From Candidatus Woesearchaeota archaeon (lineage in GTDB: Archaea; Nanobdellota; Nanobdellia; Pacearchaeales; GW2011-AR1), in NCBI GenBank assembly GCA_964516745.1, contig CAZEYD010000001.1, positions 303,309-367,308 of the forward strand: DNA of 64,000 nucleotides, given 5' to 3'. This document shows positions 3,480 to 25,397 of the stretch, piece after piece; positions within the stretch are counted from its first letter, which is position 1; every line of letters begins with the position of its first letter. Below the pieces are notes generated by a model that saw nothing but the letters and a program-made list of their open reading frames with translations, was not told the DNA's origin and ran no database searches. The translations under genes and the position numbers were made by a program.

Positions 3480-3839
3480 ATGAAAAAAAACAAGAGAGGA
3501 GATACTATACAAACCGCATTAATACATATCCTTATAATTGGATTTATAGCTACAATCTTTTTCATATCCAACGCGCAACGTATAGACAATAGATTCGTAA
3601 GACAACAAATAATAGAAAAACAAATTGCTTTGTTCATAGACTCGGCAATACCAGGAATGGAGTTTACAATAAATAAAATCAAAGAGGGGAGTTATATAAA
3701 TAAACTGGAAATCAAAGATGATTATATTTATGCAACAGTCAATAGCCTTCCCTCTGCAAAAGGTTACCCCATTTTCTCTCCATATAGTATTCAAATAAAT
3801 CAAGATGAATGGGAATATAGAATTTCTATAACAAAATGA
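3480..3839 (+). CDS. Pilin-like protein
   Basis: MKKNKRGDTIQTALIHILIIGFIATIFF. The ORF track starts at a TTG at 3471, but the ATG at 3480 gives the typical short basic leader. Confidence 0.55.
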   Translation: MKKNKRGDTIQTALIHILIIGFIATIFFISNAQRIDNRFVRQQIIEKQIALFIDSAIPGMEFTINKIKEGSYINKLEIKDDYIYATVNSLPSAKGYPIFSPYSIQINQDEWEYRISITK

Positions 3840-4339
3840 AAAATAAAAAGGCGGAAACTGCTGTCTCGGAAGGAATGCAAATGATGTACCGGATTTTTCT
3901 CGTTTTAATGGTAGCATTTATCATACTCGGAATTTCAGGGACAATATATAGAAATTATATAGATGTAAGAACAGTAGAAGCTGGTATCCTGAATAAAAAA
4001 ATCTTTGAATGCTTCGTACAAGATAATGTAATCGACATGATTAATCTTAAAAATAATGAGAATACGATACTAGATTTTTGTGGATATTCAGAAATAGAAA
4101 TAGAACGGTTTTTTGTACAAATACGGATTACTAATAACACTGGAACTGAAACTTACCAACAAGGAGACTCAGGAAGTGTTTGGATATTAGACACAATACA
4201 AGCAAGTCAAAAAGCAAATAATTTCGAATACTACGAACCAGGTTATTCATCTACAACATATAATGTAACAATCAAAAATAGTGCCAATTCTGCAGAAATA
4301 AATATACAAACCTACATAAATGAAGAAACAAAAAGATAA
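3836..4339 (+). CDS. N-terminally anchored pilus-operon protein
   Basis: ATGA overlap with the upstream gene. A hydrophobic helix YRIFLVLMVAFIILGISG follows a basic leader. Confidence 0.55.
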   Translation: MKNKKAETAVSEGMQMMYRIFLVLMVAFIILGISGTIYRNYIDVRTVEAGILNKKIFECFVQDNVIDMINLKNNENTILDFCGYSEIEIERFFVQIRITNNTGTETYQQGDSGSVWILDTIQASQKANNFEYYEPGYSSTTYNVTIKNSANSAEINIQTYINEETKR

Positions 4340-16334: not shown

Positions 16335-17549
16335 CTAAATACCCAACATTTCAATCAAACTAATCTCTATTTTTTTAAATATATTATTAGGAACACTTAA
16401 TTTAATATCCCTAGTTCTCCCATGCCTTCCTTTACTTATAACCTTAGCATTAATAATTCCCATCATATCTAAATCTGCTAATATATCACTAATTCTTCTT
16501 TGTGTTAGGCCATCTGTTTTTGTCTGTAAGCATAAATCCTGATATACATTATAAACATCACCTGTAAAAAACTTATCAATATTCTTCTCTTTTTGTTGTT
16601 TTGTTAATTGAACTATTGAATATAATACCAATTTATGTTGTTTTGGATATGTTTCAACTATATCTAATATTTTATCCTTTTCTATTTTTTGATTTGCAAA
16701 GTCAATATATTCTTCTTCTACTACAACCTTTGAATCTCTTTCTGATAATTCTCCCGCTATTCTTAATAAATCTAATGCTCTTCTTGCATCTCCATGCTCC
16801 CTAGCAGCATAGGCGGCACATTTTGCAATAACTCCATCACTAATAACATTTTTTTTGAATGCTAATTCGCACCTCTCATTTAATATGTCTCTCAATTGTA
16901 TTGCATTATATGGAGAAAATATAAATTCTTCTTCACCCAAACTACTTCTTACTCTTGGATCTATATTTTCTAAAAAAGTAACATCATTACTAATTCCTAT
17001 CAAGGATATTTGTGCATTAACTAACTCTTGATTAATCCTAGTCATAGTATATAAAAAATTATCACTCATTTTTTTAACAGCTTGATCTATCTCATCAAAA
17101 ATAAAAACTATTAATTGTTTCTTTTTATCGATAATTTCAAGAAACTTTGCCCAAACTTTATCTGTTGGTAATCCTGTTGCTGAAATTTCTCCACCCATTT
17201 TCTTTATCAGTGCTGCTAATATTCTATATTCTGTATCCGCAACCTTTCTTAATTTACAATTAAGATATTCAAATCTTACATCAACTCCTATTTCTTTTGA
17301 TTTTTCTGTTAATTGATTACAAACATATTCAACTGATAATGTTTTACCTGTTCCTGTTTTTCCATAAACAAACAAATTGCTCGGTGTTTCCCCTCTTAAT
17401 ATAGATGCCAATATTCCTGCTATGGATTTTATTTGTTTATCTCTGTGTGGAATATTATCAGGAGTATATCTAACTTGAAGTACTCCTTTGTTCTTAAATA
17501 AACTATTATTTACAGCACTTTCAAATATATCATTTAATTCAACTCCCAT
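16335..17549 (-). CDS. cdc6: Orc1/Cdc6 replication initiator
   Basis: Walker A GKTGTGKT, Walker B IFDEIDQ, sensor region and a C-terminal winged helix (GRHGRTRDIKL). It is adjacent to an AT-rich intergenic region. Confidence 0.9.
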   Translation of the reverse strand: MGVELNDIFESAVNNSLFKNKGVLQVRYTPDNIPHRDKQIKSIAGILASILRGETPSNLFVYGKTGTGKTLSVEYVCNQLTEKSKEIGVDVRFEYLNCKLRKVADTEYRILAALIKKMGGEISATGLPTDKVWAKFLEIIDKKKQLIVFIFDEIDQAVKKMSDNFLYTMTRINQELVNAQISLIGISNDVTFLENIDPRVRSSLGEEEFIFSPYNAIQLRDILNERCELAFKKNVISDGVIAKCAAYAAREHGDARRALDLLRIAGELSERDSKVVVEEEYIDFANQKIEKDKILDIVETYPKQHKLVLYSIVQLTKQQKEKNIDKFFTGDVYNVYQDLCLQTKTDGLTQRRISDILADLDMMGIINAKVISKGRHGRTRDIKLSVPNNIFKKIEISLIEMLGI

Positions 17550-17608: not shown

Positions 17609-17895
17609 ACCCCCTATTTCAAATGGAACTTATTTTATAGACTCTTTTTACTTAAAATATTTTAAAGACGAAGATTACTCTAAATTTTTATATCCCTCAC
17701 CCCATCATTTCCTTTCCAAAAGAAACTATCAACAATAATAATAATGGTAAATAATTATTCTAAAATATATATTCATTAATAACTATTACATTATACTATA
17801 TTATATTATATAAATACTTTTAAATAAAATTAATAAAATTAATAAATTAAATGTTTAAATATTTTATAATAAATCTCCAACAGAAATAGTAGGGT
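17609..17895. promoter_or_regulatory. Candidate replication origin (oriC): inverted ORB-like elements flanking an extremely AT-rich unwinding region
   Basis: The reverse complement of 17609-17629 reads GTTCCATTTGAAATAGGGGGT. The forward strand at 17874-17895 reads TCTCCAACAGAAATAGTAGGGT. The shared core is TCCAnnnGAAATAG..GGGT, in inverted orientation. A third mini-ORB-like TTCCAAAAGAAAC lies at 17714-17726. Positions ~17735-17872 are almost pure A/T. Confidence 0.55.
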
Positions 17896-18013
17896 CACAC
17901 CCATAACAAATAAAAATTATTTATTTGAATAAAATAATCAAATTAAAGTATACATACTAGAATATATTATTAAATACACAAACATTTATAAAATATTTTA
18001 ATTTATATCAAAT

Positions 18014-18268
18014 ATGGAAAAAAGATCATTCAAATCATTTTTAGGAAAACAGGTAGTAACTAAAGAAGGAAAAAAATTAGGATTAGTAAAAGATATTACA
18101 TTTGAATCAAGAACGGGTGAATTAATTCATTTAGTAATAAAAGATTTAACAACATATACAGCAAATCTTTCATTAGAAAAAACAAAAGAAAAAGAAGCCT
18201 TAGTTCCATATAATTCTGTAATTGCAGTAGGCGATTTTATTGTAGTTTCTGAAGAAGACTTAATGTAA
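18014..18268 (+). CDS. PRC-barrel domain protein
   Basis: FLGKQVVTKEGKKLGLVKDITFESRTGELIHLVI...VPYNSVIAVGDFIVV is the typical PRC-barrel pattern. Confidence 0.6.
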   Translation: MEKRSFKSFLGKQVVTKEGKKLGLVKDITFESRTGELIHLVIKDLTTYTANLSLEKTKEKEALVPYNSVIAVGDFIVVSEEDLM

Positions 18269-18720: not shown

Positions 18721-18759
18721 ATTCTAAAAATTTATAAAAGATATTAAATATAATAAATT

Positions 18760-19029
18760 ATGCCAAAAATATCAATCAAAAAAAAAGAAAAGATTTCAGA
18801 ACAAATTTTATTTTATTTATATTCTCAGTTTCCCAAACAATTATTTACAGCTGAAATAGCTAATGAATTAGCAAGAGATGAAGAATTTATAAAAGAAATG
18901 TTGATAGGAATGGAGAAGAAAGGTCTTATATTAAAAATAACAAAAAATCCAAATGGAATAAGTTATATAAGAAGATTAAGATGGAGAATTTCTAATAAAG
19001 CTTACAATATCTATAAACAAATGCAGTAA
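18760..19029 (+). CDS. Small winged-helix DNA-binding protein
   Basis: 89 aa. ILFYLYSQFPKQLFTAEIANELARDEEFIKEMLIGMEKKGLI resembles a wHTH. Confidence 0.55.
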   Translation: MPKISIKKKEKISEQILFYLYSQFPKQLFTAEIANELARDEEFIKEMLIGMEKKGLILKITKNPNGISYIRRLRWRISNKAYNIYKQMQ

Positions 19030-19899: not shown

Positions 19900-20088
19900 T
19901 TCAAAATAACTTATTCGATAAACCGAATAAATAGATAATTATATTAAAGTTAACACTAAATGAATTTAATACAACAAAATATTTACATAAGTAACAAAAT
20001 AGCGTCGACAAAATAGATTTTTAACATTTAAAAAAGACTAATCAAACAAAAAATATTATATAACCCAAACTTTTTGTGTATAATAATA

Positions 20089-20190
20089 TCTCACTTTTTC
20101 ATTTACTAATATATTTTTAGTTATATCTCACTTTTACTACAAAAAATGTATCTTTTTTCATCATTTTTTGCTTAGCTAACTCTCACTTTT
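20089..20190 (+). repeat. Three direct copies of TCTCACTTTT in a 300-bp noncoding spacer
   Basis: Copies at 20089-20098, 20126-20135 and 20181-20190. CGTCGACAAA lies at 20003-20012 just outside. Confidence 0.7.
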
Positions 20191-20800: not shown

Positions 20801-21091
20801 CTGTTTATAAAACTTCCCACCTGTTCAAACAGCAAACAGCCTTTAGACACCAATTAGTAATAATATGTTAATAAATAAACAAGTAAATATTTATATTTTT
20901 CATTCTTCTATAATTATAACGTCGACAAATAAAAAATCTAAAAAAAAAGACAATTTCATTTATAACTTACATAAACACCTGTTTGCACATTGTTTGAACG
21001 GTATCATGTTTAATACACCTGTCCAAACACAACTAAAACAACTACAAACATTAAAGTAAAAATTTAAATAGATAAACAAATATTATACAAT

Positions 21092-21394
21092 ATGCAAATA
21101 AAAAAAAGATTATCATATTCATTTATGATAGCAGCAAGCACGTTAATATTATCTTTTATTTTTCCAATTATCCCATGTAGAAAAGCACCAAATATTCCTA
21201 ACCCAATATATAAATGGTCTATGTGTACGTTGAATTCAGGATCAATATTACAAACAAACTCAACAATCGAATATTTTGGATATACAACAAATCTTAGTAG
21301 TGCAGTATTCACTTTAGTGATATTAATATCCATTATAACATACCTAACCTTAGTTCTAATTGCAAGAAGCAATAAAAAAAAAAGAAATAAGTAG
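21092..21394 (+). CDS. Small two-helix membrane protein, hypothetical
   Basis: Two hydrophobic segments and a basic tail KKKRNK. It is preferred over the overlapping antisense ORF at 21064-21372. Confidence 0.35.
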   Translation: MQIKKRLSYSFMIAASTLILSFIFPIIPCRKAPNIPNPIYKWSMCTLNSGSILQTNSTIEYFGYTTNLSSAVFTLVILISIITYLTLVLIARSNKKKRNK

Positions 21395-21839: not shown

Positions 21840-21867
21840 AGTTCGTACAATATGCATTGTGTGAAGT
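21840..21867 (+). promoter_or_regulatory. dif-like 11-6-11 site 1
   Basis: AGTTCGTACAA-TATGCA-TTGTGTGAAGT. The arms are imperfect inverted repeats, 8 of 11. Confidence 0.45.
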
Positions 21868-21941
21868 TCTAATGTATATAAACGAACGGAAATGGGCCGT
21901 TCTTACAAAAATATTTATATGCGAACGAATAATAATCTGAT

Positions 21942-22427
21942 ATGATAAAAATATGTGCAAATTGTGGAGAACAAAAAGAACATCACGCAAAAAACCTTTG
22001 TTATAGCTGTTATAAAAAGTTAAATTGGCAACCAAAGATAAAAATATGCAAAAGGTGTAAAAAAAAAAGAGCTATACATGCAAAAGGTCTTTGTGCATCT
22101 TGCTACAATTATGTGTTTCATCTTGATAAGAATAGGGCATACAATCAAAGAAAATCAAACAACATTGATCTAAAAACATACAGAAAAATCACAGAAAAAT
22201 GTGTAATATGCGGGTTTGATAAGGTAGTAGATATCCATCACCTAGATTTCAATAAAAAGAATAACTCCTCTGATAATCTAATTGGACTATGTCCTAACCA
22301 TCACCGTATGGCAAATAATTATAATCATAAGTACGAAATATTCCAAGAATTACAAAAATTAGGATATATATTACCATTGAACATAAAGATAGAATTTCAT
22401 AAAAACAAGGGGTCTGCTATTATCTAA
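21942..22427 (+). CDS. HNH endonuclease with duplicated N-terminal Zn-ribbon
   Basis: CANCGEQKEHHAKNLCYSCY and CKRCKKKRAIHAKGLCASCY form a duplicated Cys4 unit. The C-terminal HNH motif reads CVICGFDKVVDIHHLDFNKKNNSSDNLIGLCPNHHRMANN. Confidence 0.7.
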   Translation: MIKICANCGEQKEHHAKNLCYSCYKKLNWQPKIKICKRCKKKRAIHAKGLCASCYNYVFHLDKNRAYNQRKSNNIDLKTYRKITEKCVICGFDKVVDIHHLDFNKKNNSSDNLIGLCPNHHRMANNYNHKYEIFQELQKLGYILPLNIKIEFHKNKGSAII

Positions 22428-22599
22428 AAACATACATATTTCTTAGTCAGGGGCATCCTAAGCCAATTAAAACAATAAGTATAGGTAATACTCACAATAA
22501 AAGAAAGAGTCCAGTACTGACTTAGAAGAAAGGGCTCATTAAAATGAATGAAACAGAATTTATATCAAAAACAAAAAAACAGATATTTCCCAACAGAAA

Positions 22600-22627
22600 G
22601 GTTCGCACAATAATAATTATAACATAT
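22600..22627 (+). promoter_or_regulatory. dif-like 11-6-11 site 2
   Basis: GGTTCGCACAA-TAATAA-TTATAACATAT. The left arm matches sites 1 and 3 at 10 of 11. Confidence 0.35.
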
Positions 22628-22638
22628 TTTAGAGAGAG

Positions 22639-22751
22639 AAAAGTGAGAGTTAGATATGATAAATAAATACGTAAAATGTATAAAAAGTGAGAGCATTGGC
22701 AATATTTAGTGAAAATTATTCTAAATAATGGTTGATTTGTAAAAAGTGAGA
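22639..22751 (-). repeat. Three copies of AAAAGTGAGA (reverse complement of TCTCACTTTT) in a 500-bp noncoding spacer
   Basis: Copies at 22639-22648, 22683-22692 and 22742-22751. TTTGTCGACG (reverse complement of CGTCGACAAA) lies at 22768-22777 just outside. Confidence 0.7.
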
Positions 22752-22903
22752 AGTATACAATAATAAATTTGTCGACGATAAAAATACAATTAATAGAAAG
22801 ATAAAAAGAAATAAGAACTTCAAAATAATAACAATTAAAGATATTCGTTTTAACGAATAACCATAATACATTATAAAGTAATTATAAATATATAAAAACA
22901 AAA

Positions 22904-22931
22904 GGTTCGTACAATCTAAGAGGTGTGTAAT
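22904..22931 (+). promoter_or_regulatory. dif-like 11-6-11 site 3, overlapping the xer start codon
   Basis: GGTTCGTACAA-TCTAAG-AGGTGTGTAAT. The xer ATG lies at 22930-22932, and a TATA-like tataaatatata lies ~35 nt upstream. Confidence 0.4.
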
Positions 22932-23757
22932 GAATAAAAAAGAGTTTTTAAAAAAGGTAGAAATAGAGTTAAAGATATCAAAGAATTCGGAGTACACAGT
23001 TAGAAATTACATTAGAGCTAATGAAGAATTAATAAATTTTGTAGATAAATTTCCAAAAGAGATAAATCCAGATGATATAAAATTATATCTAGCAGAAAAT
23101 TGTTCAGATAGGGCTACAAGTTCGGTTATATTGTTTTTATCAGCGATAAGATATGCTCATCTTGCAGTTTTTCAGAAAGATCCAACACAGATTATAAAGC
23201 GTCCAAAAAAAGAAAAAAGAATCCCAACCGTATTAACAAAAGAAGAGGTAAAACAATTAATAAATATAATAACAAACCAAAAGTCTAAGCTAATTATTTC
23301 TCTTATTTATGCCTGTGGATTAAGAGTCTCAGAAATAGTTACATTAAAAATAAATGACTTAGATTTCATAGAAAATGTTGGACACATAAGGCAGGCAAAG
23401 GGAAAAAAAGATAGAATGGTAAATATCCCCAAATTTCTAACAGATGATTTAAAATATCAAGTAAAAAAACAAAAAGATCAGAAACAAGAATACTTATTTA
23501 CCGGACCAAAAGGAAAAATGACAACAAGGAACATACAAAAAATAGTACAAAAAGCATCAGATAAATTAGATATAAATAAAAGTATTCATTGTCATACTCT
23601 AAGACACTCATTCGCTACACATTTATTAGAAAATAATGTAGATATAAGAAAAATTCAAGAGTTATTAGGACACGCAGATTTATCTACAACACAGATATAC
23701 ACACACATCTCAAGACAAGAGCTAAAAAAAATCCAATCACCACTAGATACATTATAA
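22930..23757 (+). CDS. xerA: Tyrosine recombinase, XerA/XerCD-like
   Basis: The catalytic pattern is present: GLRVSE (R), GKKDR (K), HTLRHSFAT (HxxR), LGHADL (H) and QIYTH (Y). Confidence 0.85.
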   Translation: MNKKEFLKKVEIELKISKNSEYTVRNYIRANEELINFVDKFPKEINPDDIKLYLAENCSDRATSSVILFLSAIRYAHLAVFQKDPTQIIKRPKKEKRIPTVLTKEEVKQLINIITNQKSKLIISLIYACGLRVSEIVTLKINDLDFIENVGHIRQAKGKKDRMVNIPKFLTDDLKYQVKKQKDQKQEYLFTGPKGKMTTRNIQKIVQKASDKLDINKSIHCHTLRHSFATHLLENNVDIRKIQELLGHADLSTTQIYTHISRQELKKIQSPLDTL

Positions 23758-23783: not shown

Positions 23784-25397
23784 TCAAGTACTTTTTCTTT
23801 TTATTGCACTTTCGATTAAGCCTAAAAATAATGGTGCAGGTTTTTCCAATTTTGACTTAAATTCAGGATGTGCCTGAGTTCCAATAAAATAAGGATGTTG
23901 TTCTAAAGAAATAAACTCTACCAACATTCCGTTCTCACTCATTCCTGCTAAACTCATACCGTTATTTTCTAGAATAGAATGATATTTTGGATTGACTTCA
24001 TAACGATGTCTATGCCTTTCATCTATATTTTCAGAATTATACGCATCATAAATTTTGGTCCCGAGTTTTATTCTAGCATTATAAGATCCAAGTCGGAGAG
24101 TACCTCCAATATCTATTTTTATATTTTGACCAGGTAAATATTTTATTACCTGATGTTCTGAAATTAAATCAAATTCTTCACTAGTTGCATCTCTTACTTC
24201 ACAAACATTTCTTAAAAACTCGATAACCGCTAATTGTAATCCTAAACAAATCCCTAAAAAAGGAATATTATTTTCTCGAGCATATTTAATCACTTTAATT
24301 TTACCTTCAGTTCCTCTGTTCCCAAATCCCCCAGGAACAATTATCGCATCAACTCCTTCTAAAATCCTTTTTACATCCTCATCATTTTCTAAATTTGAAG
24401 TTTCGATCATTTCAATTTCAATTTGTTTTTTAGTTTTTGCTTTACAATGAGTTAATGCCTCAATAATCGAAGCATAAGAATCTTCTAATCCTGTATATTT
24501 TCCACAAATAGCAACTTTAATCGGATTTTCTTTTTCTAATACACCTAAGCTTTTTGTTAAATCAATCCATCTTAAATCAACTTCTTTAGAAAGTTCTAGT
24601 TCCAACTTTGTATTAAGTAAGTGAATCATATTTTGTTTAACATAAATTTCAGGAATTTCATAAATATTTTTTACATCATGCGCCGAAATAACATCTTCTC
24701 TTCTAACATTACAAAAGAGAGCAATTTTATCTTTTATTTGGTCACTTATCTTGTCAGTACATCTAGCCAGAATAATATCGGGTTTAATTCCTCTTTCTAA
24801 AAGTAGCTTAACACTTTGTTGAGTAGGCTTTGTTTTAGGCTCACCAACATGAGGAGGAATAGGCACATATGTTAGATGAACAAACATACAATTCATTTCT
24901 CCAAGTTCACTACCTAGCTGTTTAATAGTTTCGATGAATAATTCAGATTCAATATCTCCAACAGTACCCCCAACCTCAACAATAACAATCTCAGCATTTC
25001 CTGCAGCGATTTTAATCTTTTCTTTAATTAAATCAGTAACGTGTGGAATTAACTGAACAGTTTTTCCTAAATAATCTCCTCTCCGTTCTTTCTTCTGAAT
25101 ATCCGAGAAGACTCTTCCCATAGTAATTGATTGTTCTTTTGTACAAGTACAATTAAAATATCTTTCATAATGTCCAAAATCCATATCAACTTCAGTACCA
25201 TCATCTAGAACAAAAACTTCTCCATGTTCTTTTGGATTCATAGTTCCGGGATCTGTATTTAGGTAACCATCCATCTTTACAGGAACAACATTATATTTAT
25301 GAGACAGAATATGACCAATACTTGCAGCAGCAATTCCTTTACCCAATCCAGAAAGCACGCCTCCCGTAACAAAGATAAACTTTTGTTGCATTATCAA
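23784..25397 (-). CDS. pyrG: CTP synthase
   Basis: N-terminal KFIFVTGGVLSGLGKGI, and a glutaminase domain with GICLGLQ and HRHRYEVN. Confidence 0.95.
   Translation of the reverse strand: MIMQQKFIFVTGGVLSGLGKGIAAASIGHILSHKYNVVPVKMDGYLNTDPGTMNPKEHGEVFVLDDGTEVDMDFGHYERYFNCTCTKEQSITMGRVFSDIQKKERRGDYLGKTVQLIPHVTDLIKEKIKIAAGNAEIVIVEVGGTVGDIESELFIETIKQLGSELGEMNCMFVHLTYVPIPPHVGEPKTKPTQQSVKLLLERGIKPDIILARCTDKISDQIKDKIALFCNVRREDVISAHDVKNIYEIPEIYVKQNMIHLLNTKLELELSKEVDLRWIDLTKSLGVLEKENPIKVAICGKYTGLEDSYASIIEALTHCKAKTKKQIEIEMIETSNLENDEDVKRILEGVDAIIVPGGFGNRGTEGKIKVIKYARENNIPFLGICLGLQLAVIEFLRNVCEVRDATSEEFDLISEHQVIKYLPGQNIKIDIGGTLRLGSYNARIKLGTKIYDAYNSENIDERHRHRYEVNPKYHSILENNGMSLAGMSENGMLVEFISLEQHPYFIGTQAHPEFKSKLEKPAPLFLGLIESAIKRKST

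Follow-up and report, generated by a model that had tools for sequence, protein, structure and literature searches.

In Sulfolobus, a dif site has been predicted near xerA (Cortez et al. 2010, PMC2958812). For haloarchaea, the predicted dif lies upstream of the xerA operon, Thermoplasma acidophilum carries a XerA-binding site that does not recombine (dif1), and the inner motif of archaeal dif reads TAA-N6-8-TTA (PMC11840125). XerA from Pyrococcus abyssi binds and acts on single arms (PMC3646895). In streptococci and lactococci, autoregulation has been proposed at the difSL-xerS locus (Le Bourgeois et al. 2007, PMC1914069). Here, we analyzed a window of 64,000 nucleotides (G000:C1:303309-367308) from the genome of a Candidatus Woesearchaeota archaeon (1,008,083 bp in 15 contigs, 31% GC), in which sites sharing a common arm lie around a gene for an HNH nuclease and reach into the start of a xerA gene. 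Coordinates are window positions unless a contig is named. Judged from sequence comparison, the locus is probably where this small DPANN archaeon of the Pacearchaeota type has its chromosomal Xer/dif unit, approximately 4 kb from its single replication origin and with candidate operators for XerA.

A preliminary description of the window reported three directly oriented 28-mers on the plus strand, at 21840-21867 (site 1), 22600-22627 (site 2), and 22904-22931 (site 3), with a shared left arm. All three read exactly as quoted, and the ATG of xerA, at 22930, lies inside site 3, as had been claimed. The genome-wide motif count that the description called for, together with a permutation, confirmed that the distribution of the shared arm is non-random. 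GTTCGYACAA occurs four times in the genome, three times at this locus and once on contig C10. The looser motif GTTCGYAYAW has 8 copies genome-wide versus approximately 18 expected from base composition, and 4 of the 8 fall within 21841-22905. When 8 points were placed at random in 200,000 trials, four of them never fell within 1.1 kb. The motif is therefore both rare and clustered, which rules out a chance cluster as well as a generic promoter element, a possibility that the preliminary description had itself raised.

The resemblance to dif was claimed on two grounds, which fared differently. Site 1 is indeed an inverted repeat, with 8 of 11 arm positions matching, but sites 2 and 3 match at just 4 of 11, which is chance level. 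Similarity to Escherichia coli dif amounts to 18, 18, and 17 of 28 positions for sites 1, 2, and 3, respectively; since scores of at least 18 are reached by 163 positions in this AT-rich genome, this similarity is not significant and was discarded as evidence. The central regions of the three sites (TATGCA, TAATAA, and TCTAAG) are all different. Two further elements, each as conserved as site 1, had been overlooked: at 21878-21888 lies a half-site in inverted orientation, and at 21899-21926 another palindromic 28-mer (the second 28-mer below).

These two elements and site 1 make up a noncoding block of approximately 95 bp (21840-21926) upstream of the HNH start codon. Site 1 (plus strand) reads AGTTCGTACAA-TATGCA-TTGTGTGAAGT, two inverted arms of approximately 11 bp set 6 bp apart, a layout that sites 2 and 3 lack. 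The inverted half-site reads GTTCGTTTAT on the minus strand (CGAACG on the plus strand), and AAACGAACG is kept there in all 15 aligned loci of the genus and in the close relative L073, whose HNH protein is 86% identical. The second 28-mer, GTTCTTACAAAAATATTTATATGCGAAC, is composed of GTTCTTACAAA-AATATT-TATATGCGAAC, and the TATA-like box of the HNH gene (TTTATAT, 21914-21920) falls inside its spacer and right arm. The whole block is near-invariant across the 15 aligned loci, with the consensus AAAGTTCGCATAA-TATACA-TTGTATGACGTTCT...AAACGAACG...CCGTTTGCACAAAGTTTTTAATATGCGAACGC-T-run-ATG, and its elements stand at fixed offsets of about -100, -42, and -15 from the HNH ATG. In 22 of 22 HNH-carrying loci of the genus, the second 28-mer has its plus-strand arm at about -42 and its minus-strand arm at -14 to -19. 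In L073, the two long spacers are otherwise unalignable and only islands are conserved: the 95-bp block, site 2 with the first 10-mer box, a TCGACGATAAA box, the palindrome TATTCGTTTTAACGAATA, and the xerA TATA box with site 3.

Changes in the arms of the second 28-mer are not compensatory, which indicates a protein site on the DNA rather than an RNA stem. Rfam and tRNA scans of 15-30 kb gave a tRNA at 28.9 kb as their sole match and no other RNA element; being empty at the locus itself, they rule out an RNA element in combination with the arm changes. Two loci of the genus (L020 of genome G022, 396-500, and L069 of genome G150, 3829-3941) carry, immediately before the dif core, extra tandem copies of related sites whose spacer is longer (GTTCGTATAA-N10-TTGTGCGATC), which shows that the block can expand.

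Site 1 is a genuine dif-like site. A 30-nt pattern for it matched exactly once in 40 of 48 genomes of the genus, including all 9 of high quality, and twice in one genome, both times at contig ends; the reversed control pattern had zero matches, and the dif-type pattern found no match in viral contigs. Site 1 is thus single-copy, as archaeal dif is on its chromosome. Across 41 relatives, the arm positions are invariant or show mirrored Y/R changes (genus consensus arms GTTCGYAYAA and xxTCRYAYAA), and the spacer is more variable, position 15 most of all. Conserved arms around a looser spacer are the signature expected of the core site of a tyrosine recombinase and support site 1 as dif, as does a palindromic site near xerA in genomes of other families that lack the HNH gene.

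The preliminary description held that a dif so near the origin would be unexpected and favored a mobile or regulatory reading, with a better palindromic dif to be sought elsewhere. That search returned two good noncoding palindromes, at G000:C3:71221-71248 (AGTTCGTTTAA-TCTATG-TTAAGCGACAT) and G000:C8:5373-5400 (GTTCCACATAA-TATATG-TTATATGGGAA), but neither is conserved in any of the 48 genus genomes. Site 1 is the only dif-like site found to be conserved in the genus, and its origin-adjacent position is itself conserved, so the expectation was not borne out. Collectively, the clustering of half of all motif copies, the single occurrence of site 1, the failure of the rival palindromes to persist, and the invariance of the block amid unalignable spacers argue that the block is most likely the true chromosomal dif.

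The distance of approximately 4 kb to a single origin follows from the skew switch, the cdc6 gene, and the origin recognition boxes (ORB). The sole cdc6 of the genome lies at 16335-17549. Upstream of it, canonical ORB-type boxes (GTTCCATTTGAAATAGGGGG type) at 17609-17629 and 17874-17895 face each other across AT-only DNA. The GC skew of contig C1 is unusually strong (about -0.3 to -0.4) and flips with origin polarity at ~17-27 kb of the window, and gene orientation switches in the manner of an origin in the same region as the dif-like site. The order cdc6, four small genes, a 200-aa gene on the minus strand, a 100-aa gene, HNH, and xerA is syntenic in relatives of the genus.

For tyrosine recombinases to exchange strands, each site must have both arms, and the central regions must match. 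Because sites 2 and 3 are single-armed and have unlike central regions, their recombination with site 1 is not expected. The preliminary description had nevertheless read the direct repeats as brackets around cassettes, namely the HNH gene and a repeat-filled spacer, which XerA could excise and move at present. One arm does occur in three directly oriented copies, and one member of the genus, G009, lacks the HNH gene. However, the right arm is absent from sites 2 and 3, the three centers disagree, and 22 of 24 genus loci, like the closest relative, retain both the HNH gene and the spacer that carries the 10-mer array. The corresponding region of G009 holds housekeeping and other genes (among them IMPDH) and a different palindrome, GTACGCACAA-GGTATC-TTGTGTGTAC, rather than an empty site. 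Neither of the hallmarks of integrative mobile elements exploiting Xer (IMEX) and dif modules was seen: there are no two competent flanking sites with matching centers, and the comparison of close relatives revealed none that lacks the segment and keeps an intact empty site in its place. We consider excisable cassettes highly improbable.

The product of the HNH gene (21942-22427, plus strand) has 161 aa and carries two zinc ribbons in its N-terminal part. Its four CxxC pairs and its HNH motif (HH...N...H) are invariant in 34 homologs. An AlphaFold2 model (pLDDT 90) has an HNH fold with weak matches, to HNH domains only (McrA, PacI, Gme, and Cas9); the protein has no NCBIfam hit, and the structure search gave no specific function. 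It is 60-74% identical across genus loci, as conserved as XerA, and keeps its place within the syntenic cdc6-to-xerA block. Across the order, 30 of 151 genomes, from 17 of 84 genera, have the gene, always in single copy. It invariably comes right after a dif-like full site, on the downstream side, including in genomes whose xerA lies at a distance of 5-35 kb.

Such patchiness at one fixed place would fit an HNH gene that entered beside dif long ago, by Xer-mediated integration or by homing into a conserved site, and was then fixed, leaving sites 2 and 3 and the second 28-mer as remnants. The catalytic motif is intact, as a homing endonuclease would require, and genomes of other families that lack the HNH gene carry a palindromic GTTCGCACAA-N6/7-TTAAGCGAAC site shortly upstream of xerA. 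Yet the identity of the HNH protein tracks that of the neighboring 200-aa gene (r = 0.63) with no outlier pair suggestive of transfer, its catalytic residues do not vary in any of the 34 copies, and loss would explain the sporadic distribution equally well. The promoter half-site is also present in HNH-less genomes, making site 3 older than any insertion. An ancient insertion beside dif seems unlikely and cannot account for site 3. By these comparisons, the HNH gene appears to be vertically inherited and is not a cassette.

The recombinase gene, xerA (22930-23757, plus strand), encodes a 275-aa tyrosine recombinase that scores 225 bits against NCBIfam NF040815 (recomb_XerA_Arch), passing the equivalog cut-off of 220. 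Its score of 95 bits against the XerS profile NF003462 falls short of the cut-off of 267, so it does not belong to XerS. Its best solved relatives are XerA of P. abyssi and T. acidophilum (PDB 4a8e and 5hxy), and its sequence shows the R, K, HxxR, H, and Y motifs. Of the 7 hits to tyrosine recombinases in this genome, it scores highest.

Upstream of xerA, a TATA box (22889-22896, plus strand, TATATAAA) presumably serves as its promoter, and the half-site of site 3 (22904-22914, plus strand, GGTTCGTACAA), a candidate xerA operator, lies between this box and the ATG. Most relatives have an ATATAAA-type box ahead of the half-site, and site 3 stands 4-8 bp past such a box and 15-35 nt before the xerA ATG in 17 of 24 genus loci. 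The layout TATA-N4-8-GTTCG upstream of xerA recurs in most members of the genus and in other families, where the variants GTTCGTTTTA, GTTCGCTTTA, and GTTTGTACAA hold the position of site 3. Where another gene precedes xerA, the half-site is kept at the promoter of the operon. Five more genomes that encode XerA have just 2-3 exact copies of the motif apiece, one of them upstream of xerA (within 60 bp in four genomes), and five genomes without a XerA match have 0-2 copies, a comparison that is limited by its small sample of 5 + 5 genomes. The autoregulation of xerA that the preliminary description had suggested from the position of site 3 gains support from this recurrence, and xerA is probably regulated by its own product through site 3. 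The equivalog match of XerA and the retention of the TATA-then-GTTCG layout across the genus and families also argue for the dif reading itself.

Site 2 is an isolated half-site (22600-22610, plus strand, GGTTCGCACAA), as the remainder of the quoted 28-mer contains no conserved arm. It forms a conserved island within the diverged spacer when compared with L073, and 11 of 22 genus loci have half-sites of its type between HNH and xerA, without exception on the plus strand.

Several observations weigh against a dif with XerA operators. The inner arms read CAA-N6-TTG here, not the TAA-N6-TTA that is the hallmark of archaeal dif; across the genus, TAA is found in 26 of 41 sites and TTA in 9 of 41. 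The site adjoins an origin-type skew switch and not the terminus, where archaeal dif is expected, an expectation that holds for Thermococcales and not for Sulfolobus. A recognizable site 3 is absent in 6 of 24 genus loci. The sequence also does not separate the two 28-mers as the site of strand exchange, and several conserved helix-turn-helix (HTH) proteins encoded nearby, including winged-helix proteins between cdc6 and xerA, are possible alternative binders.

If one of these proteins were the binder, the GTTCGYAYAA sites would be operators of a dedicated factor that coregulates HNH and xerA, the dif look would be incidental, and the true dif would be absent or unrecognized. In favor of this, promoters overlap with two of the sites, synteny links several HTH genes to them, and chance suffices to explain the likeness to E. 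coli dif. Against this stand the 11-6-11 layout of site 1 with its conserved arms and looser spacer, its occurrence in single copy, the absence of its pattern from viral contigs, and the failure to find any other conserved dif candidate; moreover, the motif accompanies xerA where gene order has changed. We regard a dedicated factor as rather unlikely.

For the favored Xer/dif unit, we infer that the sites are bound by XerA, that strands are exchanged at site 1, and that transcription is repressed by the binding. The XerA protein, whose gene lies 1 kb downstream of the composite block, would recognize GTTCGYAYAA, the arm that the sites share, and would resolve chromosome dimers at the dif core (site 1). 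On site 3, between its own TATA box and start codon, it would hinder the recruitment of RNA polymerase and so keep its own level low, and on the second 28-mer it would cover the TATA box of the HNH gene, which would be repressed as well. Site 2 would be a facultative extra half-site of the same kind.

The region around these sites also has a symmetric arrangement of repeats. AAAAGTGAGA(GTTA) boxes form two mirror-image arrays of three boxes each, at 20089-20189 (minus strand) and 22639-22751 (plus strand), and all six exact AAAAGTGAGA copies of the genome sit in them. Outward of each array follow an inverted GTCGAC box (20002-20013 and 22767-22782) and then a TATTCG-N6-CGAATA palindrome (19912-19929 and 22842-22859). 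The palindrome at 22842-22859, TATTCG-TTTTAA-CGAATA, lies a short way before the xerA promoter, forms one of the conserved islands in L073, and has its mirror copy at 19912-19929. The arrays, which are conserved across the order, enclose dif and HNH together with the 200-aa and 100-aa genes. Being unlike canonical ORB boxes, they are probably binding sites of a neighboring HTH protein. A more speculative idea, which we think quite doubtful, is that the Xer/dif unit of this order is an origin-proximal hub for chromosome handling: with dif beside oriC, mirror-image protein-binding arrays around it, and the HNH promoter built into the dif block, the nuclease would be a working partner of XerA and not a passenger, for example by nicking or processing junctions in place of the missing FtsK-type control.

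Three AT-rich stretches of 45 nt, 71-73% alike, each end at the ATG of a small gene (17979-18023, 18725-18769, and 21057-21101) and are probably a shared promoter type of the small conserved genes between cdc6 and dif. On the other side of the locus, pyrG (CTP synthase, 23784-25397) sits between xerA and the next gene in this genome only. In L073 and G073, a 214-aa gene directly follows xerA, and in other relatives IMPDH or a different gene adjoins it; these varied neighbors mark the xerA flank as a rearrangement hot spot.

The fourth GTTCGCACAAT copy of the genome, on contig C10 (G000:C10:8468-8633; L006 695-891), lies in a 197-bp spacer upstream of a gene for a 326-aa integrase (L006 892-1872). 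The same spacer contains a near-perfect 11-6-11 palindrome, GTTCCAACTAA-CATACA-TTAGTTGGAAA, and a 14-bp direct repeat, AACTGCGGGACCAT. This arrangement looks like a site, with Xer-like arms, at which a separate element, mobile or extrachromosomal, is attached or resolved.

To our knowledge, how archaeal Xer recombination is controlled without FtsK is an open question. This lineage bears on it because its only conserved dif-like site adjoins the origin, a putative recombinase arm lies in the recombinase gene's own promoter, and the dif block has a nuclease gene wired into it. Should XerA prove to bind these sites, the locus would be a clear case of a chromosome-resolution recombinase doubling as a transcription factor, and it would show that dif need not sit at the terminus in an archaeon with a single origin. 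For annotation, the analysis places dif across a whole genus of Pacearchaeota-type genomes. It also cautions that repeated Xer arms are not to be taken for mobile elements.

IMEX (CTX, TLC, and GGI) and dif modules share with this locus directly repeated Xer-type arms around a small gene without a recombinase of its own. They differ in that the locus has no two complete sites, no common center, and no presence/absence polymorphism with clean junctions, and its gene appears to be vertically inherited. In the difSL-xerS system, too, a single recombinase gene is linked to its site; its authors proposed that this site is located in or beside the promoter and that the recombinase thereby regulates itself. 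However, XerS belongs to another protein family, and difSL is found at the terminus and directly abuts xerS, whereas here the promoter holds a half-site only, 1.06 kb downstream of the full site.

In archaea, repressors of the MDR1, LrpA, and Phr type occupy the interval from the TATA box to the start site and block the recruitment of polymerase. The candidate operator described here is placed in the same way, 4-8 bp downstream of the TATA box, although the putative binder is a recombinase and not a dedicated regulator.

The closest parallel is the XerA/dif system of P. abyssi, T. acidophilum, and Sulfolobus, in which a single XerA is paired with one 28-bp site per chromosome, made up of two inverted arms of approximately 11 bp and a 6-bp spacer. 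As in the Sulfolobus and haloarchaeal predictions, dif is close to xerA, and, like dif1 of T. acidophilum, the extra candidate XerA sites would not recombine. In contrast to those systems, the probable dif described here is approximately 4 kb from the origin rather than in a late-replicating region, it is embedded in a 95-bp multi-site block, half-sites lie inside two putative promoters, and a conserved HNH gene separates it from xerA. We conclude that the block is most likely a conserved, origin-proximal dif with promoter-embedded half-sites, a variant of the known archaeal Xer/dif arrangement.

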